From positions 1,408,001 through 1,472,000 of the forward strand of contig OZ220696.1 in the NCBI GenBank assembly GCA_965116495.1: a stretch of DNA of 64,000 bases, read 5' to 3'. Positions 26,860-39,559 of this stretch are shown here, piece after piece (within the stretch, counting starts at the first letter, position 1; each line of letters begins with the position of its first letter). The stretch is from Gammaproteobacteria bacterium (GTDB taxonomy: Bacteria; Pseudomonadota; Gammaproteobacteria; Eutrophobiales; Eutrophobiaceae). The notes under the pieces were generated by a model that was not told where the DNA came from, ran no database searches, and worked only from the letters and a program-made list of their open reading frames with translations. The translations under genes were made by a program, and so were the position numbers.

Positions 26860-26937
26860 AATGCTGGAAAGGTCTATGTTAGGAAGTTGAATATCCGGCC
26901 ACGGAGTTGCTTGAATGTTTTGGCCGCTTCCAGACTT

Positions 26938-29900
26938 TCAATGCGGGAGACACGGTCCATCTTCCCGCTTGGCTTCTTCCTCATAGTCTTTCGCCGCACG
27001 TCGAAGTGAAGCGGCGGTTTTTGGCCACTCCATCTCGCATTGATTCGCAAATCGATGATATTTCCCGGCAAGTTCATTTTCTCGTAACCCTTTCCCTTCA
27101 AAACGGACGCTGCCGTTTTTATTATATATCCCAACTCTAAATCCTCGGGCTAAAGCATCGCTGTCGAATTCATCGATAACGTCACGGACCGGATTACTCG
27201 GCCACTCATCTTTACCTTCCGGCTCCTGCGCCAGTACCTCGCCGATACGCTCATCACATACTTCCAGGTGACCTGATTCTTCACATTTTTCTCTGGCGAT
27301 CCTTACCCAATCCATAAGTTCCTGTTCATTGATCAGCCCATCGTTGTTCATGCCGGGTATCATCTTCCATTGAGTTAACAACACATACGCTTGATGCGCT
27401 CGTGCTTTGTCCCGCTCTGTGAAAGCTTGCCGGTTATCTTCCGGCTTTTTGTCCGAGTGAAAAACCGTCCGGATGAGTCGACAAAAGAATTCGGGGTCCT
27501 GTTGTAATGATTTTTCCAGTGTTACCGGAGATGATCCACTGTATTCATCCAGAAATTCAAGGTAGACCCACTCCAATTCAGTGAGTCTGATCGTATCTGT
27601 ATCAGAGCATCTTTCTTGTAGATATTTAAATAATTCCTGGATTTTGTATTTGATATCACTCTCTGTTACTTCTTCAAGGCTAATTTGAATTTGCCCCTTC
27701 CGTGCAGTTTCTAATGTCTCCAGTGTTTTGATAACCAGATCCGGGTCAATCTCGCATCCGTCATACAAAGCCATATTCAATATGTCAATGGCTTTAAGAG
27801 GATGTCCATAGTGGATTAATTTTGTTACCGCGAACTCAACGTCTTCTTTGCTGCCATCACGAACAAAGTCTCTAACGTGTCCCCAATAAACAGACCTGGC
27901 CTTAGAATTCTGTTTTTCTACCCATACCCAGGTTTCTCGTTTGAAGGGCAATACAGATAAAAACAATCCGGATTGTTCCGGTTGCCATGCCTTCAGGGGA
28001 AGTACTTCAACCCAATCCCAGTCTTTTTGCTCAAACAGTGCGCGGACGATACCAGCTGTAAATTCTTTCTCACGTTCATTATCCGAAGTCAGCAAAGCAG
28101 GAATGACGTCATCAGTATCGTTATAGAGTGCGCTACGCACATAACCATTGCCCACGATATCCGGACGACCGGATTCTTTGGCAAGCTTGAGAATTTCTTT
28201 TATTCCCCCATCCTCGTATATTTCCTGCAAAGCCTGAGCCCTGATTTGATAAATTGCTTCCTCTCGCTGTTGCGAGGACGTTCCAAGATTCATGTAGCCA
28301 TCGGGATAAGACGCAAATAACCAAAGGTGCCTGGCGACCAGATCAACGGGCTCGAAACGGTTTTGCAGGGTCTCCAGCCTGTTGGCAATATTTGGCGGTA
28401 TAGCTCTTTTTTTGTCTGATGCACGGGTTTTTATTACCTGTTTTCTTATGCTTTCCGTTATTTTTCTCCTGACTACCGTATCCAATTCTGTCAGGTCCCA
28501 CTGTTCCAGTCGATCAAACAGTTGTTTTTGTGTAGCTTGCGGGAGATGGTCAAACTCATTGAGCAACTGTAACCATCGTTCAATATCAGTTCCTGCCATG
28601 GAAATCAGATAACCTGCACAAGCGGATATCTGTTGCCAATACCCGTCGTGATCAGGTGTCTGCTCCCAAGCCAAAGACCAGTCCCGCCATACCGGCATAC
28701 GGGTATCTGATGACGTCCTTAACACATTCGGCATGAGGCTGAGCAATAATTCCCAGGCTGCTTTCGGGGTTTTTTCGACCAACTTTTTTATTGCTTTTAT
28801 TCTTTGTTCAACGGATGCCGTTGTGTGGGGATGCCAAGGCAGGAAAACCTGTTGCAGACTGGACAGGGGGCTGCTTGACCATTGCCCCTGCGAGCCGATC
28901 TCATATAAGCGTCCAAGAATTAAACTCACCTTAGTAAGGTAAGATGGATTCCAGGCCAGTACTTCTAGTGCGCCCAATATTCCTTCGTATGCAGAAAAGG
29001 CAACGGGTAAAGGAGCATCAGAATCGTTAAACAATTCTTTCAATACAGGACTCTCGCATTTGAGATCGTTTTCGACGGTTGACAAAAATACTTCGGGAGC
29101 CGCTTCTGCCAATTTGGGTAACAAGCCGGACAAAGAAGCCCATAGTTGCCAGGAAGTCTCCTCATTCAGAAGTCTACCCACTATTTGCTCAGCTTTTCCC
29201 TCGGGTTTGATGTCACTTTGCATCGTGCCGTTCCCAGACCTGCATGCCAACAGGACCAGCGTTTCACACATAGCCAAGCGGATCTGCGCGGAATATCTAA
29301 GTTCATTATCGTGGAACGCCGCATACGGCTGATCCTCTGCCGGCAGGTCATGTCTGATGTCCACTTCACCGAGAATTTCTACTGTCAGTTCCTCAAATGT
29401 GAGAAGGTCTTGTCGGGTTATATAGCATGCCAGTAACCGCCATGAATCTTCTCGCGATTCCAGGCTACAATGTTCATGTACACGTAAGAAAGGAGAGTCA
29501 GGTCTATTCAGCCAGAGGTTAACGATGTTTGCATTCTTTTCATACGATTTGCCGGATAATTTTTCAATAGCGCGTTGATCGGCATCGGATATTTCGTCCC
29601 AAGAGCCGACTAAAATAAAAGGTATTAATTCTCGAGCCCTGTCTGCTTCGCTCCATTCAGGATGTTTTGTAACAGGAAAGCGGGAAATAGAGCGTTTCAG
29701 CACGGTTAAACTTCCACCCGCCATGCGAGCGTAGTCAGATGCCACTTGCTCGGTAAGACCGGAGGTCAATAATGCTTTCTTCAACGCGTAACGATCAGGA
29801 CGCTGCAAATGAATTCGATCATATTTCGCGGAGAAGTGGTGATAGCAAAGCAGAACGTGATGACCCTGCTGCACGGCTTCTGTGATCATTGCTGCATCCA

Positions 29901-31038
29901 CGGGTAAATCCGGTTCAGGGATTAATAGTAACGAATTGGGGGATGCCGAGAGGTCTATCCACGCGTCCTTGTCCCGTATAATTAATGTTCTTGCCACCAT
30001 TTCATCTGCAAATTCACGAGGATCTACTTTCAACTCAAGGGTGGCTTCCTGGCTCCTGAAATACACGTGACAAGCAGAAATAAAATCAATTACGTCAACA
30101 GGAGAGGATGATTCAACAGCCAGTACGGAAGGTGCCGAACCCAACCATTCTGTAAACATATTTACTGCTTTATCACGTGATGTGAGGAACACGCTTGCAG
30201 GTAATGAAGGATTGGTCGAAGCGGATAGCTTTTCCCAATACCCCTCAAGATCAACAACTCCTTCCGGTTGGAGGCCAAGCATACGGGCAAGCCAGTTTTC
30301 GACACCTCTGGCAAACTCCAACCATTCCTCCTGGCTTTCGGAGTCGTATACCCTGACATCTTTCCAGATATTCAAGTTTTTCTTCTCCGAACACCATGTG
30401 TCTTTCCCTTGCCATCTTCGCGGTGTGACAAATATAAAGGTTGCCTGTTTTTTGTCCACTCCACATGAATTTTCAGTGCGTTTTCTGAAATCCTCCTCAG
30501 CCCTTCTACACGGCTGCCTATTGACACTCATTTCCCACACACTCAGTCCCGCAGGCACAAATTCATTGCCGCGGGCTGCCTCAATGAGCCCATCCCAACC
30601 CGGAATTTGCACGCATTCAAAGGCGGGAACTTGCACACGAATAAGGTTGTCTGAATCAACAGTACCGCGAACCAACCGTCGAACCAGGAGGGGGAAGATA
30701 GATTGCGCATCAATTCGGTCAGCCCACTGTTCCAACATTACAGATCTGACCCGGGTCGATATTCTTCTGCTGCGGGGAGGTTGGGGCAACCTGTCTACAC
30801 CTTCCTTTCGCGCTAGCCCGAACAGTGTTTGCCGTTCAGTGGATTCAGGCTCCATTTTAAGCGCCTTTGCGTACGATTCCAGGAGCGTTGCAGATCTTGG
30901 CGGGGCGAGAATATTCCGTTCAAGTTTGCTGATGTTGCCCTGATCAAATCCATTTCGGCGCGAGAATTCACGCAGGGACAAGCCCAACGCCTTACGGCGC
31001 TGCCGGAAATAGTCACCAAAGCGTATTGAAGAAGACAT
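26938..31038 (-). CDS. 1366-aa multidomain protein: Xre HTH + putative PD-(D/E)xK-like domain + degenerate NTPase-like/helical region; candidate defence protein
   Basis: N-terminal HTH (RQRRKALGLSLREFSRRNGFDQGNISKLER), then GWDG...GLSVWEMS...DFRKRT...FIFVTPRRW and a long helical C-terminus. Visibly more AT-rich than the flanks. Confidence 0.75.
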   Translation of the reverse strand: MSSSIRFGDYFRQRRKALGLSLREFSRRNGFDQGNISKLERNILAPPRSATLLESYAKALKMEPESTERQTLFGLARKEGVDRLPQPPRSRRISTRVRSVMLEQWADRIDAQSIFPLLVRRLVRGTVDSDNLIRVQVPAFECVQIPGWDGLIEAARGNEFVPAGLSVWEMSVNRQPCRRAEEDFRKRTENSCGVDKKQATFIFVTPRRWQGKDTWCSEKKNLNIWKDVRVYDSESQEEWLEFARGVENWLARMLGLQPEGVVDLEGYWEKLSASTNPSLPASVFLTSRDKAVNMFTEWLGSAPSVLAVESSSPVDVIDFISACHVYFRSQEATLELKVDPREFADEMVARTLIIRDKDAWIDLSASPNSLLLIPEPDLPVDAAMITEAVQQGHHVLLCYHHFSAKYDRIHLQRPDRYALKKALLTSGLTEQVASDYARMAGGSLTVLKRSISRFPVTKHPEWSEADRARELIPFILVGSWDEISDADQRAIEKLSGKSYEKNANIVNLWLNRPDSPFLRVHEHCSLESREDSWRLLACYITRQDLLTFEELTVEILGEVDIRHDLPAEDQPYAAFHDNELRYSAQIRLAMCETLVLLACRSGNGTMQSDIKPEGKAEQIVGRLLNEETSWQLWASLSGLLPKLAEAAPEVFLSTVENDLKCESPVLKELFNDSDAPLPVAFSAYEGILGALEVLAWNPSYLTKVSLILGRLYEIGSQGQWSSSPLSSLQQVFLPWHPHTTASVEQRIKAIKKLVEKTPKAAWELLLSLMPNVLRTSSDTRMPVWRDWSLAWEQTPDHDGYWQQISACAGYLISMAGTDIERWLQLLNEFDHLPQATQKQLFDRLEQWDLTELDTVVRRKITESIRKQVIKTRASDKKRAIPPNIANRLETLQNRFEPVDLVARHLWLFASYPDGYMNLGTSSQQREEAIYQIRAQALQEIYEDGGIKEILKLAKESGRPDIVGNGYVRSALYNDTDDVIPALLTSDNEREKEFTAGIVRALFEQKDWDWVEVLPLKAWQPEQSGLFLSVLPFKRETWVWVEKQNSKARSVYWGHVRDFVRDGSKEDVEFAVTKLIHYGHPLKAIDILNMALYDGCEIDPDLVIKTLETLETARKGQIQISLEEVTESDIKYKIQELFKYLQERCSDTDTIRLTELEWVYLEFLDEYSGSSPVTLEKSLQQDPEFFCRLIRTVFHSDKKPEDNRQAFTERDKARAHQAYVLLTQWKMIPGMNNDGLINEQELMDWVRIAREKCEESGHLEVCDERIGEVLAQEPEGKDEWPSNPVRDVIDEFDSDALARGFRVGIYNKNGSVRFEGKGLRENELAGKYHRFANQCEMEWPKTAASLRRAAKDYEEEAKREDGPCLPH

Positions 31039-33224: not shown

Positions 33225-33313
33225 TTGGATAGTTGTTTTGACAAGTAGTTGGTCGGATTATCAGGAAGCCTATCATAAAGCAATGCTGGTTCGCACTAAC
33301 TGAAACCGGTTTA

Positions 33314-36300
33314 TTATTCCGGACCGAAGACCAGTTCGGGTATCACGATCTCCCAGGCATCAGACTTGATGCGTTCCTGGTACTCAGGCTTTGACTGCTC
33401 CCGTTTACGGGTAATGATTGCCAACACTTTCGCGTACAGGCAGCGCATTCCCTCCGGCGCTTCGAAAGCGGTGGTGAGGCGTCCTACCTTATTGCCGGCA
33501 TGGTCAAGTAATTCCCACCGTTTCTTCTCGTTCAGGCATGCGCTGAGTGAGTCACCGGGATGCAGCGCGGCAATATTTCGATGCACGCGATAATGGGGTT
33601 GAGCACGGCTTGCGAAGCCTAAATCGATCTTCTTGAGATCAGGTCGCTTGTAAACATGATAGAGTTCGGGAACAGGTGACGGTAGTTGTACGGGGTCACG
33701 CTGCAGTATGGAAGAATGTTCTTGCAATGAGCTGATGACATGACCCTTTCTGTTGTCAGCCTCGTTAAAGCATAGCAGCGAAAGCGTTTGCCGCGCGCGC
33801 GTCATGGCGACGTAGTACAATCTGCGCGGCGCGTCCCTGCCTTCTTTGCTGTTGCGACTGTCCCATCCTCCATCCAACACTACCACGTGATCGAATTCCA
33901 ACCCTTTGGCGCTGTGGGCAGTGAGCAGCAACAGCCCGTTCTGGCGCCCGCGCGCCGCCTGGCCCCATTCAGCCAGCCATTCGATGAACAGGGTAACCGG
34001 TATATCCGACGCCGTCTCCCCGGTTTCCTCCTGGTACGCAGTCGCAGCCTCCTGCAGCAATTCGATCCAGGGGTTTTGTCGCTGGGCTTTCAGCCAGGCC
34101 TTGAACTCAGACATTTTTACCACTTTCCTGTTGTCTTGCTTCAGCCAGTCCAGGCAGGCCTGGGTTTCCCGCAGACGCCAGAAATTCGGGAGTTCTTCGT
34201 TACCCAACTGTACTGGAATTCTCTCGTGCTCACAGAACCCGCGCACCGGATCCAGGTACTTCCACTCACGAGCAATCACCGCGCAGGACGACCAGTCCCA
34301 ATCTTGCGTGAGACTGGACAGACGTTGCAACTCCAGCATGGCTGCCTGTGCCTGCGCTACCGGATCTTCCCCCGCCGGCAGTAGCTGTACCCTGCCCTCG
34401 CCCACCGGGTCGATTTTGCCCCAATCGCCGCCATGGGGTTGTTTTGCGCGCGCCTGGTTTATCCTGATCGGATGCCCGGTTTTCATCCTGTGAGGCGCCG
34501 GCTCGATCAACGCGTTGGCCGCGCTGATGACGTGGGCGGTGGAACGGTAGTTATCCGTGAGATAGACCGGCTTGGCCTTGTAGTCCTCCTCAAAACGGCG
34601 GATATATTTCACCGAAGCGCCCTTGAAGGAGTAGATGTTCTGGTCGTCATCGCCGACCGCGAACAGTGTCAGCTTATCGTCTTCATCCGTCAGCGTGCGT
34701 CCCGTAAGAGCGGCGATGAGGTCATATTCTTCCTGGCCTATGTCCTGGTATTCGTCCACCAGGATCCAGCGAAAACCGGCCAGCAGTCGTTCTCGCTGTT
34801 CACTCGCATCTTCCGCTTCCAAACCATCGCCACGCAGCAATGCTGTCGCATCTCGCAGCAGGGAGTCAAAGACCGAATCGTCAGTCATATCATGGCGATC
34901 AGTGAAACTGGCACCTACCAAGCGCATCGCTAGACCGTGGCACGTAAGTACCATTACCCCTCGAGCATCATCACCGACCATATCCGTGAGGCGGCGGCGA
35001 ATTTCCACCGCAGCATGGCGGTTGTAAGCCAGTGCCAGGATGCCGCGCGGGTTCTCGCGTCGCACCCGTAACAGGTAAGCGATGCGATGCACCAATACCC
35101 GCGTCTTGCCAGAGCCGGGACCCGCCAGCGCCAGCACGTTGGTCTGTTCCCGGTCGTCCGCGACAATATTTTGTTGTACGGGATTATCAAGATATTCGAC
35201 AATGTTGCGCCAGGATTCCGGCGTGGTCTGGTGTTCAATTTCCTTGCCGGTATCGGGAAGCCAGTAATCCAGGAAATCATCCTGTTTCTGTTTGAAGTAA
35301 TCCAGTGCCAACTCCAGCGCTTTTTTAATATCGTCCAGCCCAAGCTGCGCATAGGCTTTCATAATGTGGATCTGTAAGATCTGACCCAGGTAATGGTCTT
35401 TGAGCGGCGCAAAGTCGGTGTTGCGAAAGCCGCGCTTGCCTTGATCCCCTTGCGCCAGGCGGATGGTCATGGCCGGACGGAATACCGCCAGGCCCTTGTT
35501 CAGGCGAATCACTTCGAGTTCGTGCAGCCACAATAATGCACGCTCCATCAGCTTCTCGGGTTTTTTCATCTCCTGTTTCAAGATGATGTCAGCGTTGAGG
35601 ACCTCGAGCAGCTTACCCAGTGTTGTCTCGGCCAGCAGATCGACACCACGGCTACCGGACGGCAGACCGTCAAGCAGGTGTCCCAACAAACATGCGGCAG
35701 CAGTACGTCGCCGTTCGGCTGTTTTTTCCAATGCCGACCAATCACGTCTCAGTGTTACCCGCACCGTCTCTGCGTCCAGTTTGCGCACTTCGAGGCTACT
35801 GCCACTGCCGTCTTCACCACGGCCATCAGCACCAAGACTGCGTAGAATACGCAACAATCGTTCCGGCAAGGCGTCCTCATGGCCGGCATCCTTAAGTTGC
35901 TGGTTAAGCTGGCGCAGGTGTAGCGGCCAGGCATCACCCTTGCCCATATCCGGCGCCGCCTCGCGCAGGCGCTCGATCAGCGCACGTTCCAACTGTATCG
36001 CTTCGTTCAGTCGTTTCTTCGATGAATGCTCCACGCCGGCATGCACAAACGCGGTCAGCACGGTGTCATTACTGGCGATCCCCAGTTTCTCAAGGTCGTA
36101 CAATGCGGCGCGCAATCCTTCAGCATTCATATCTGCAACACCGATTAACTCATCCGTGGAAATGCCCTCATCCGGATCAGCCTGCATCAGGGTTTCCACG
36201 ATGCGCAGTAACTGCTTGCGATAGTCATCCGGGATAAATGCTTTGCTGAGCCTGTCTTGTGCCTGCTCGATCGAGTTTACACGTAGAGATGATGGGAAAA

Positions 36301-38494
36301 CCTGCACCTGGTTCTCTTCCCTTGACAATAACTTTGCCTCCTCCAGCCAGGCGATAGCGGTGCGCACCCGGTTATCGTCGGTCGCCGAGTCCCGCTCGAA
36401 TTCCTTGTCCTCCTCATCCAGCAGAATCTCACCGGCTGTGGCCACCACTTCACCTTGCCCGTACTTTTTCCGGTCCAGGCGGCGCAATGCTCTCAGGATA
36501 CTGTGAATTTCGCGCCGGTTAAGTCGTCCACGACTGGATAACATGAACTGCTGCTCTACATCGTCCAATGTATAAAACAGCACACAACGCGCCGGTTGCC
36601 GATCCCTGCCGGCGCGGCCAGCTTCCTGCAGGTAGTTCTCCAGTGAGCCTGGGATATCGGCGTGCACGACCAGGCGCACGTCTGGCTTGTCGATGCCCAT
36701 GCCAAACGCGTTGGTGGCAACAATCACCCGTAATTCACCACCAACAAAACGCTTTTGCACGTCCTTTTTGCTTTCCGGTTGCAGACCTGCGTGGAAATAA
36801 TCCGCAGCGACGTCCCGCAATTGCAAAAATTTGGCAAGTTCCTCTGTGTCCTTTCGCTTGGCACGATAAATAATACTGCCGCCCGGCTCTTCATCCAGGC
36901 ACTCTCTCACCATCTGGTGGATATGGGAAAACTTCTCCGGCCCTGTTGTCGGCAGCACTTCAAATTCCAGGTTATCACGCTGCGCCCCACCGTTAAAAAC
37001 CTTCATCCCGATGTTGAGTTTGTCTTGCAGGTGTCCCACTATGTCGGCTACAACGTCCGGCTTGGCGGTGGCAGTCAGGCATATCAACGGTGGCACCGGC
37101 TCCTCACCTGCTTTCTCACGGATGAAGCGTGCCACGTAACGATAATCTGGGCGAAAATCATGTCCCCACTTTGACAGGCAATGGGCTTCATCCAATACCC
37201 AGGCGCCGATCTCGCGCTGGCTCAGCGCCCGGCGCACGGAACGGTTGCGCAACTGTTCGGGGGAGATGAGGAGGATACCGGCATCTCCCAGACGCACCTT
37301 GTCCAGCACGTCACTGCGCTCAGGGAGAGATAACAATCCGTTGACCGCGACGCTACAACCAATCCCATGTTTTTCCAGACCGGCAACCTGGTCCGCCATC
37401 AGCGCCACCAGAGGCGAGATAACTACGGTGAGTGCGCCGGTCTTGTCATAGCGGGACAGGGCCGGGATCTGGTAGCACAGAGACTTGCCGGTGCCTGTGG
37501 GCAGGATACCCAGTACGTGTTCTCCTGCAAGCGCCGTCTCGACGATGGACTGCTGCAAGGGTTTTCCCTGTACGTCTGCGGGTTCCGCCCGGAAAGTGTT
37601 GAACCCAAACCAGCGCTTGAGTTCCTTGTTTGTATCGTGCCGCTCCCTGCACCAGCCACATTTGGGGTCAGTGCAGGCGAGATCCCGCAGGCGACGCACC
37701 AGTTCACCCGCTTCGGGAAACTGGTGGCAGACCCAGGGTGGCATGACCGAGTTGCCCCCGCATACCGACAACCAGGCCAGCGTATAAGCCAATGACCATG
37801 TAAATGTCTGCCCGGCTTGCGTTATAATCTCCCTTGCCTGGATGATGCAGCCACGATCATCCAGGAGTCTTTGCAGCGCCGCCCCGGCCTCCATATCGGG
37901 AGGCCTGGATGCCTTTCGAATATCGGAGAAAACAGCATCGAAACCAGCATCGTTTTCCGTTGTGGCGGTCAACCAGTGCCAGGCAGCCAACTGATCCGGA
38001 TGGGCGCTTACCAATTTGGCCAGCTCCAGGCGCTGCTCAGTGAACACCTGCAAGGCAAGTCGTGAATCCAGATACGGATCATTCAGGCGGCCACGTATCA
38101 GTTGTCCATCCTGGTAATGTTTCACCAGACGGTGGTAGGGGTTGGCGGGGAAAGCCAGGGGACTCAAGCGCAACGTATCGATCGGAGGCAACTTCAACAG
38201 CTTAAGACCCGGTTGCGCGGCGCGCAGGTGAGGAATGTCAAATTCAATCAGGTTATGGCCCAAAAGGTAATCCGTCCCGACCGCCAACTCATCCAGCTTT
38301 GACAATGCCCTGTTCAAGTCTCTACGCTGAGAATTTCCAGGATAAACCAATGACTCATCAGTGTCCGAACGTACCGCAGCGAAAGCATGGATGCGTTTGT
38401 CCTGTTTTCCGACTTCCAGGTCAAGCGAAAGGCAGCAATGAGAAAAGCGTCCCTTTTTATTTAACGGCCGGTTCACTCTGTTCACCGATGACAA
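33314..38494 (-). CDS. 1726-aa fusion: DEDD-type exonuclease-like domain + RecQ (SF2) helicase + UvrD/Rep (SF1) helicase
   Basis: LDLE...GHNLIEFD...DTL; LPTGTGKSLCYQ, LDEAHCLSKWGHDFRPDY, LTATA, VATNAFGMGIDKPDVR, QEAGRAGRD; AGPGSGKT, LVDEYQD, VGDDDQNIYSFKG, NYRS, TAHSAKGLEFD, LYYVAMTRA. Confidence 0.93.
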   Translation of the reverse strand: MSSVNRVNRPLNKKGRFSHCCLSLDLEVGKQDKRIHAFAAVRSDTDESLVYPGNSQRRDLNRALSKLDELAVGTDYLLGHNLIEFDIPHLRAAQPGLKLLKLPPIDTLRLSPLAFPANPYHRLVKHYQDGQLIRGRLNDPYLDSRLALQVFTEQRLELAKLVSAHPDQLAAWHWLTATTENDAGFDAVFSDIRKASRPPDMEAGAALQRLLDDRGCIIQAREIITQAGQTFTWSLAYTLAWLSVCGGNSVMPPWVCHQFPEAGELVRRLRDLACTDPKCGWCRERHDTNKELKRWFGFNTFRAEPADVQGKPLQQSIVETALAGEHVLGILPTGTGKSLCYQIPALSRYDKTGALTVVISPLVALMADQVAGLEKHGIGCSVAVNGLLSLPERSDVLDKVRLGDAGILLISPEQLRNRSVRRALSQREIGAWVLDEAHCLSKWGHDFRPDYRYVARFIREKAGEEPVPPLICLTATAKPDVVADIVGHLQDKLNIGMKVFNGGAQRDNLEFEVLPTTGPEKFSHIHQMVRECLDEEPGGSIIYRAKRKDTEELAKFLQLRDVAADYFHAGLQPESKKDVQKRFVGGELRVIVATNAFGMGIDKPDVRLVVHADIPGSLENYLQEAGRAGRDRQPARCVLFYTLDDVEQQFMLSSRGRLNRREIHSILRALRRLDRKKYGQGEVVATAGEILLDEEDKEFERDSATDDNRVRTAIAWLEEAKLLSREENQVQVFPSSLRVNSIEQAQDRLSKAFIPDDYRKQLLRIVETLMQADPDEGISTDELIGVADMNAEGLRAALYDLEKLGIASNDTVLTAFVHAGVEHSSKKRLNEAIQLERALIERLREAAPDMGKGDAWPLHLRQLNQQLKDAGHEDALPERLLRILRSLGADGRGEDGSGSSLEVRKLDAETVRVTLRRDWSALEKTAERRRTAAACLLGHLLDGLPSGSRGVDLLAETTLGKLLEVLNADIILKQEMKKPEKLMERALLWLHELEVIRLNKGLAVFRPAMTIRLAQGDQGKRGFRNTDFAPLKDHYLGQILQIHIMKAYAQLGLDDIKKALELALDYFKQKQDDFLDYWLPDTGKEIEHQTTPESWRNIVEYLDNPVQQNIVADDREQTNVLALAGPGSGKTRVLVHRIAYLLRVRRENPRGILALAYNRHAAVEIRRRLTDMVGDDARGVMVLTCHGLAMRLVGASFTDRHDMTDDSVFDSLLRDATALLRGDGLEAEDASEQRERLLAGFRWILVDEYQDIGQEEYDLIAALTGRTLTDEDDKLTLFAVGDDDQNIYSFKGASVKYIRRFEEDYKAKPVYLTDNYRSTAHVISAANALIEPAPHRMKTGHPIRINQARAKQPHGGDWGKIDPVGEGRVQLLPAGEDPVAQAQAAMLELQRLSSLTQDWDWSSCAVIAREWKYLDPVRGFCEHERIPVQLGNEELPNFWRLRETQACLDWLKQDNRKVVKMSEFKAWLKAQRQNPWIELLQEAATAYQEETGETASDIPVTLFIEWLAEWGQAARGRQNGLLLLTAHSAKGLEFDHVVVLDGGWDSRNSKEGRDAPRRLYYVAMTRARQTLSLLCFNEADNRKGHVISSLQEHSSILQRDPVQLPSPVPELYHVYKRPDLKKIDLGFASRAQPHYRVHRNIAALHPGDSLSACLNEKKRWELLDHAGNKVGRLTTAFEAPEGMRCLYAKVLAIITRKREQSKPEYQERIKSDAWEIVIPELVFGPE

Positions 38495-38553
38495 CTCAAG
38501 GGTTCATGTGGATTTACCAAAATTTCTGTCACATTATATCTTGTTTTGTGCTT

Positions 38554-38588
38554 TATCATTTGATATATTATAAATTACTCAAATGATA
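38554..38588. promoter_or_regulatory. Putative Xre antitoxin operator
   Basis: Perfect 10-bp inverted repeat TATCATTTGA-N15-TCAAATGATA in the helicase/xre divergent region. Confidence 0.6.
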
Positions 38589-38598
38589 TTAATCTCTT

Positions 38599-39051
38599 AT
38601 GGCAAAAAGCACGACAAGTAAAGTATTCAGGCCTGGTACGACAGGCGATCTGTTCTGGCAACAATTAGGTGTACCCGGACGCGGCCCGCGCTTATTCGAA
38701 CAACTGGAAACAGGCTTCCACTACCGCTTCTTTGTTTTGCTGGCCGAACTGTCAGGATTACAGAAAAAACAGCTCTCCACCTTGCTGGCAATTTCTCCTG
38801 CCACCCTGGCGCGGCGCGCTAACGCAGGCCGTTTTACCCCCGCTGAGAGTGACCGGCTGTTTCGTTGCGCGGAAATTCTTAAGGCTACTATTGATCTTTT
38901 TGAGGGTGATCAGAACGGGGCATGTCGCTGGATGATAAACCCAAGTATCGGGTTGAACGGCAAGGCTCCCGTAGAGATGCTGCGTAGCGCAACGGAAGCA
39001 AGCGCCGTAGAAGACCTGATCGGCCGAATGGAGCATGGAGTTATTGCGTGA
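38599..39051 (+). CDS. Xre/MbcA/ParS family antitoxin (DUF2384)
   Basis: LAISPATLARR...FTPAESDRLFR...LFEGD...W...GLNGKAPVEML...LIGRMEHG. Confidence 0.9.
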   Translation: MAKSTTSKVFRPGTTGDLFWQQLGVPGRGPRLFEQLETGFHYRFFVLLAELSGLQKKQLSTLLAISPATLARRANAGRFTPAESDRLFRCAEILKATIDLFEGDQNGACRWMINPSIGLNGKAPVEMLRSATEASAVEDLIGRMEHGVIA

Positions 39052-39533
39052 TTCGAGCCTACCGGCTGGTTAAGCGCCGGCAGTCTGCAACCGCTTTCGA
39101 CGGTGAGGGCGCCCGACGTTTCGGAGGGCGGTGGAACAGCAAAGGACAGGCATGTATTTATCTTACGAGTTCCATCTCTCTGGGGCATCTCGAGATTATG
39201 GTCCATGTAAGTGATTATCACATACTGAGACAATACACCGTACTAAGTCTGGACCTGGAGGTAAGGGATATGATGGTGCTCCCGGATGATGCGCTTCCGA
39301 ACGACTGGCGTGACTATCCGGCGCCGTTATCGACTGCGCTTATCGGCAATGAGTGGTTAGCTGGTCGGGAGTCAGCGGTCTTGTCAGTACCCAGCGTAAT
39401 TGTCCCGTCTGAAAGGAATTATCTGCTCAATCCCCGACATCCGCGATTCACGGTAATTATCGGGACAGCCCGGGACGTGGAGTTCTCTTTTGACCCGAGG
39501 CTAGGGTCTACAGGCATTACCGGGGGATTCTGA
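39048..39533 (+). CDS. RES domain toxin (NAD+ phosphorylase/ART family)
   Basis: AYRL, FDGEGARRFGGRWNSKG, Y...LEIMVH, LSVPSVIVPSERNYLLNP, FDPRL. Confidence 0.92.
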   Translation: MIRAYRLVKRRQSATAFDGEGARRFGGRWNSKGQACIYLTSSISLGHLEIMVHVSDYHILRQYTVLSLDLEVRDMMVLPDDALPNDWRDYPAPLSTALIGNEWLAGRESAVLSVPSVIVPSERNYLLNPRHPRFTVIIGTARDVEFSFDPRLGSTGITGGF

Positions 39534-39559
39534 CACAACTGTTTCAGTACTATTCCGTC

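Follow-up and report, generated by a model that had tools for sequence, protein, structure and literature searches.

A mobile bacterial protein family joining a DEDD-type exonuclease domain to RecQ-type and UvrD-type helicase motors, possibly in the service of defence

The gene described here lies in a 64,000-nucleotide stretch of contig OZ220696.1 (positions 1,408,001 to 1,472,000; a gammaproteobacterium of the Eutrophobiaceae), the whole of which we call the window. It encodes a single long polypeptide with two helicase motors and, together with an Xre-RES toxin-antitoxin pair, fills a ~6.3-kb insertion. The insertion interrupts a short spacer from which two genes diverge, one for a 2Fe-2S ferredoxin and the other for a vanA-like Rieske oxygenase. 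The features are as follows.

33227..39551 (limits approximate): insertion of ~6.3 kb, placed by empty sites and the joint of run X6
33314..38494, minus strand: whole gene, 1726 aa, start codon uncertain; in order, exonuclease domain, RecQ motor, probable winged helices, UvrD motor and beta domain
38030..38437, minus strand: DEDD-type 3'-5' exonuclease domain, aa 20-155 (hhalign 98.6%, E 1e-15; key residues conserved in 49-50/50)
37625..38029, minus strand: helical linker in which C216 and the cysteines of C274-x4-C279-x2-C282 are conserved and likely form a zinc site
36551..37624, minus strand: RecQ-family SF2 motor, aa 291-648, lacking two features of ordinary RecQ, the RQC cysteine cluster and HRDC
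35450..36550, minus strand: family-specific middle region, aa 649-1015, with four helix-strand-helix-helix-hairpin repeats
35195..35449, minus strand: aa 1016-1100, a helical stretch that connects the motors
33695..35194, minus strand: UvrD/Rep-type SF1 motor in a compact form, aa 1101-1600
33317..33694, minus strand: C-terminal beta-rich domain, aa 1601-1726, weakly HIRAN-like by hhalign and model
38599..39533, plus strand: Xre antitoxin and RES toxin pair, inside the same insertion but optional

The 1726-codon frame (1723 aa in its database form) is open throughout and contains the motifs from which a RecQ (SF2) and a UvrD (SF1) motor had originally been read: GTGKS (334-338), DEAH (435-438) and QEAGRAGRD (623-631) in the first, and GSGKT (1127-1131), DEYQD (1247-1251) and YVAMTRA (1561-1567) in the second. 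Pfam agrees, with DEAD at 312-483 (E 3e-31), Helicase_C at 528-631, UvrD from 1104 (E 2e-37) and UvrD_C at 1519-1574. The fusion is real because 119 of its 120 best homologues align over 98-100% of the query, at 64-100% identity. These full-cover homologues, together with the eight contig pieces among the matches listed in run X2, which equal the window letters with the sole exception of one alternative copy, rule out an assembly chimera. Walker A/B, motif III and motif VI of both motors are conserved in 49-50 of 50 family proteins drawn from across phyla (34-60% identity), and dN/dS values of 0.09-0.33 in 26 of 27 domain comparisons indicate purifying selection, which excludes a pseudogene or neutral cargo. 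An RNA run returned scattered, partly divergent pieces of the gene (share 0.06) that do not establish expression, and a promoter scan gave signal at chance level.

The N terminus had been described as DEDD exonuclease-like, and profile-profile comparison with DEDDh enzymes bears this out (hhalign probability 98.6, E 1e-15, 121 columns; cross-controls at E 0.1-0.2). The domain fits a DnaQ-like profile with four acidic residues, D25 and E27 in the DxE motif (25-27), D86 in the GHN..FD motif (79-86) and D143, all conserved in 49-50 of the 50 proteins. Pfam itself finds no exonuclease in the window protein and RNase_T in 8 of 27 family members (best E 5e-4). Neither classical subtype is matched: the DEDDh His position (x4-D) is N138, an Asn in 42 of 50 proteins, and the DEDDy Tyr position (x3-D) is D139, found in 36 of 50. 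Hence the idea of a degradation machine stands as far as an exonuclease-type domain is concerned, whereas degradation of DNA is not assured, because the usual His is mostly replaced by Asn. The domain also conserves H121 (49/50) and K125 (50/50), which could supply catalysis.

The first motor exceeds the cut-off of the broad RecQ subfamily model TIGR00614 (307.7 versus 219.8 bits), the only model to be exceeded among the 25 NCBIfam rows listed. With the canonical RecQ model TIGR01389 it reaches 341.7 bits against a cut-off of 640.2, aligning with profile positions 4-336 of 591. RQC and HRDC gave no Pfam match, and the cysteine cluster after motif VI is absent. The four repeats of the middle region are likely winged helices. 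The second motor has SF1 motifs I-VI and the fold of UvrD/Rep/PcrA (SF1A), its nearest kin, and scores 178.9 bits where the full-length UvrD/Rep/PcrA equivalog asks for 1144; by motif spacing, the intervals that hold 1B and 2B each fall ~68 aa short of those in the host UvrD. RecQ and UvrD/Rep/PcrA-type motors both run 3'-5', and from this kinship both motors of the fusion protein probably do so as well. At the C terminus the likeness to HIRAN is weak (hhalign 36%, E 4e-4, 39 columns). HIRAN's conserved N-x-x-D-x-x-A loop is absent, Pfam HIRAN had no match in 32 family members, and the domain lacks any Pfam or PDB match.

The top structural matches were RecQL4, WRN, Rep and UvrD; helicases took up the matches of these fold searches, which thus barely probed the exonuclease, middle and C-terminal parts. 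PDB sequence searches with the same three parts gave no significant match, the best of exonuclease type being T7 polymerase at E 0.16, and an ESM Atlas search gave unnamed clusters only.

It is conceivable that the protein is active in part only, and that the rest is regulated by one motor, or by the Asn-bearing DEDD domain, serving as a sensor of nucleotides or DNA ends. The Asn in 42 of 50 proteins and the shortened 1B and 2B would suit such a role, and full-length Nhi, a phage-defence nuclease-helicase, is reported to have little nuclease activity, suggesting autoinhibition (10.1101/776245). Against this, the DEDD acids and the motif residues of both motors are conserved almost without exception, and H121 and K125 might stand in for the His. 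We regard this reading as very improbable.

No named system accounts for the protein, as had been noted at the outset: neither PADLOC nor NCBIfam has a system that matches it over its length, and the 25 best of 81 PADLOC models are each confined to one motor. The best scores came from the RecQ-like PsyrT of PsyrTA/RqlHI and DpdF and from the UvrD-like GajB of Gabija, but each model covers a single motor (~aa 285-670 or 1100-1570), and no PsyrA/DprA, Dpd or GajA partner was present among the neighbours scanned. The N-terminal half resembles WRN. In contrast to WRN and RecQL4, however, the fusion is bacterial and mobile, lacks the RQC cysteine cluster and HRDC, and has a second, UvrD-type motor; moreover, the WRN exonuclease is of the DEDDy type, and the corresponding Tyr position is D/N in the fusion family.

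The dual-motor RecBCD, offered originally as an analogue, compares only loosely. RecBCD, AddAB and AdnAB share with the fusion protein a helicase-nuclease logic and an SF1 motor of RecB/UvrD fold, but they are multi-subunit enzymes with SF1 motors only and PD-(D/E)XK nucleases, and RecB and RecD have opposite polarity. The fusion is a single chain that has a DEDD-type nuclease and combines SF2 with SF1, both probably 3'-5', rather than an opposite-polarity SF1A and SF1B pair with a PD-(D/E)XK nuclease. The analogy is weak because RecB and RecD advance side by side, one on each strand, and two motors of the same polarity cannot. A contrast between RecD2 and PcrA/UvrD is drawn in PMC8469786.

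Two single-chain proteins have a comparable layout. Bacillus subtilis DinG is reported to have a DEDD exonuclease fused ahead of an SF2 helicase (PMC12525004), but this helicase belongs to the DinG/XPD family, not RecQ, and is the only motor. Nhi is likewise a single chain, in which a nuclease at the N terminus is joined to a helicase; it degrades intermediates of phage replication, its proposed target (10.1101/776245). It differs in having 606 aa, a nuclease of the PD-(D/E)XK type and a lone SF1 motor (DUF2075), as opposed to 1726 aa, a DEDD domain and SF2 plus SF1 motors; DUF2075 is not among the eight Pfam matches of the fusion protein. Nuclease-helicase fusions are thus a known kind, while the exonuclease-RecQ-UvrD architecture was not found described in the literature searched and is apparently undescribed, bearing in mind that supplementary candidate tables could list the family. 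Passages of PMC5512222, PMC13069673, PMC11232893, 10.1101/2022.05.11.491447, PMC12904381, PMC12458937 and PMC8469786 deal with subjects other than this family.

The insertion that holds the gene has neither an integrase nor att-like end repeats, and the window contains no tRNA. Its empty counterpart joins 33226 to 39552 (run X6). In 12 ferredoxin regions from genomes without the gene at this place, the flanking genes are adjacent in six, deletion remnants persist in two, and other cargo or arrangements are found in four. The remnants, at the same site, lie at 7915-8965 of L074 (genome G004) and 8385-8560 of L075 (genome G016). Eight regions were available from the nine carriers in the genus: six adjoin the same ferredoxin gene, with differing toxin-antitoxin cargo, and two lie elsewhere. 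In the two relatives with the closest vanA (95%), the site is empty and a 72% copy of the gene lies at another place. The flanking toxin-antitoxin pairs differ between genomes and so are not partners of the fusion gene.

The original prediction had placed the gene between AbiE and RES-Xre modules. Both are neighbours, but AbiE (AbiEi/AbiEii) is not a direct one: the ferredoxin gene intervenes, and AbiE forms, with a 1366-aa HTH protein, a separate insertion on its other side. AbiE was ruled out as a partner: of eight carrier regions one has it beside the site, and an empty-site genome has a diverged version there. The 1366-aa protein (26938-31038, minus strand) has an N-terminal Xre-type HTH followed by ~1300 aa without a Pfam, NCBIfam or PADLOC match, has a 73% identical copy at the same place in genome G001, and is possibly an unrecognised defence protein. 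Nearby, a 65-bp piece (26886-26950), single-copy in the window's genome, has counterparts of 91-95% identity near marR/ferredoxin in six regions of the genus and likely belongs to a small unannotated gene that overlaps the ORF at 26874-27134.

The family is large and goes by unspecific names. Searching with the exonuclease region alone brought up at least 3,030 clusters (90% identity level; 7,996 candidates scored), and the middle region yielded 920 representatives at E 1e-3, 597 at 1e-10 and 246 at 1e-30; named members are labelled merely as RecQ-family, DNA 3'-5' or partial helicases. The gene was found in 16 of 400 phylum genomes drawn at random and in 9 of the 22 other members of the genus, with no carrier among 18 further relatives, and a 2.6-kb middle piece of the gene had no match in E. 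coli genomes. A quick 36-protein tree intermingles Pseudomonadota, Chloroflexota, Binatota, Thermodesulfobacteriota and Acidobacteriota, with at least three changes forced for Pseudomonadota. Such mixing of phyla fits transfer, although mis-binning could contribute to it. The gene itself is a mosaic: codons ~300-1300 are 88-98% identical to those of genome G005, while codons 1-300 and 1500-1726 are 60-77% identical, and codons 1-100 are 92% identical to those of genome G008, so that the ends and the middle differ in their nearest relative. Partial second UvrD-type segments lie just downstream of the gene in L020 (15977-16819) and L023 (15849-16658). The patchy presence, with gain and loss at one site, supports an accessory and mobile family.

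Mobility could also mean that the gene serves the mobile elements themselves, in plasmid, chromid or island replication, recombination or the exclusion of rivals, rather than the host. Seventeen plasmid records carry it, with Cereibacter, Allochromatium, Thiothrix and Paracoccus among the hosts that are cultured and non-pathogenic, and integrases or transposases are close by in L006, L026, L028 and L030 and on pALVIN01. Yet these 17 came from a set of 72,556 plasmid records, and 10 of the 17 are non-mobilizable; no full-length copy occurs in 50,697 phage records. Mobility genes are not conserved partners, and the insertion studied here has no integrase or end repeats. We therefore find such service unlikely. 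In two of four carrier plasmids that were opened, type I RM or CRISPR lies near the gene.

The fraction of homologues in defence neighbourhoods, a check proposed with the original prediction, came out in its favour. Defence or toxin-antitoxin Pfam domains (restriction, CBASS, Lamassu, HNH, TA or similar) lie within ~7 kb of 10 of 16 unselected copies and in 2 of 15 control regions (Fisher p 0.009; 0.006 without AAA_21-only cases; 0.02 after dropping two positives). The copies came from the random phylum sample and the controls, four of them only ~5 kb, were chosen by a fixed rule in the same genomes; 126 of 160 test ORFs (~177 kb) and 149 of 169 control ORFs (~173 kb) were scanned, the test ORFs left out being those below 100 aa, one antisense call and some outermost ones. 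Scoring was by eye from Pfam names and not blind, and kin among the copies are not independent. PADLOC, run on a hand-picked set of 60 proteins with only three controls, from which no statistic was drawn, named CBASS, Lamassu, Septu PtuA, type IIG/I/IV restriction, Mokosh MkoC, SoFic, DrmD and PDC proteins, and in L008 a full Azaca set directly upstream of the gene. Among these neighbourhoods, L103 (15141-18755) contains a CBASS cyclase and phospholipase with DACNG/DACNH sensor domains, resembling the CBASS-DAC named in PMC13069673, and L108 (1799-6991) a 1731-aa Mokosh MkoC-like helicase with Toprim and topoisomerase-like domains. Across 37 loci, no partner gene recurred beyond close kin. Residence in a hotspot is common to any mobile gene, and so the enrichment of defence neighbours does not show function.

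The most serious competitor is an accessory, horizontally spread repair or fork-processing enzyme, in effect a WRN-like protein of bacteria with a UvrD motor added. It would act on stalled forks, restarting or trimming them, and clear away recombinase filaments, and would reside in hotspots through mobility alone. RecQ, UvrD, DEDD and HIRAN-like parts are all classic repair modules, and the top structural matches are in keeping with this. In L115 (6289-12555) and L116 (1894-7041) the gene lies on the same strand as, and directly beside, genes for an XPB/ERCC3-type helicase and 760-aa unknown proteins, in an operon-like setting; in L009 it adjoins mutY and an Exo_endo_phos gene, and in L014 a DNA ligase gene is a neighbour. 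Five of 25 carrier genomes have no RecQ found above cut-off, and the low dN/dS in nearly all comparisons would suit a repair role too. On the other hand, the remaining 20 of 25 carriers do have a canonical RecQ above cut-off, the window's genome has its own RecQ and UvrD, and the gene has been deleted in two relatives. LexA-type boxes upstream of family genes are at chance (2 of 39 versus 1.6 expected), and the excess of defence neighbours over controls speaks against repair as well. The three loci L009, L115 and L116 do have repair-type neighbours. On balance we consider an accessory repair role possible but on the doubtful side.

We favour, with about even confidence, a stand-alone defence nuclease-helicase that would attack phage or plasmid DNA intermediates. 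For defence speak the neighbour enrichment, the patchiness, the empty sites, the own RecQ of most hosts and the phylum-mixed tree, as well as plasmid carriage, the mosaic ends, LexA boxes at chance and the precedent of Nhi. Against it count the 6 of 16 copies without a defence or toxin-antitoxin neighbour (in L114 the gene lies between ileS and lspA), the three repair-type loci and the good conservation of the sequence across phyla. In such a defence enzyme, the winged helices and the C-terminal beta domain may bind forks, gaps or DNA ends. Both motors, probably 3'-5', might then follow one another along a single strand and strip it of SSB or recombinase, or else separate the two arms of a fork or D-loop. 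Freed 3' ends would be trimmed by the DEDD domain, possibly slowly or under control because Asn mostly stands for the usual catalytic His.

More boldly, and as a tentative suggestion, this may be the first single-chain machine to join two working motors of different superfamilies to an Asn-for-His DEDD nuclease, giving one-gene immunity against the forks or recombination intermediates of invaders, with specificity set by swaps of the terminal modules. The conserved pairing of SF2 and SF1 in one chain poses a clean, testable question, namely how two motors of the same direction cooperate. If the family is indeed defensive, it would represent an overlooked one-gene immune system present in ~4% of the sampled genomes of the phylum.
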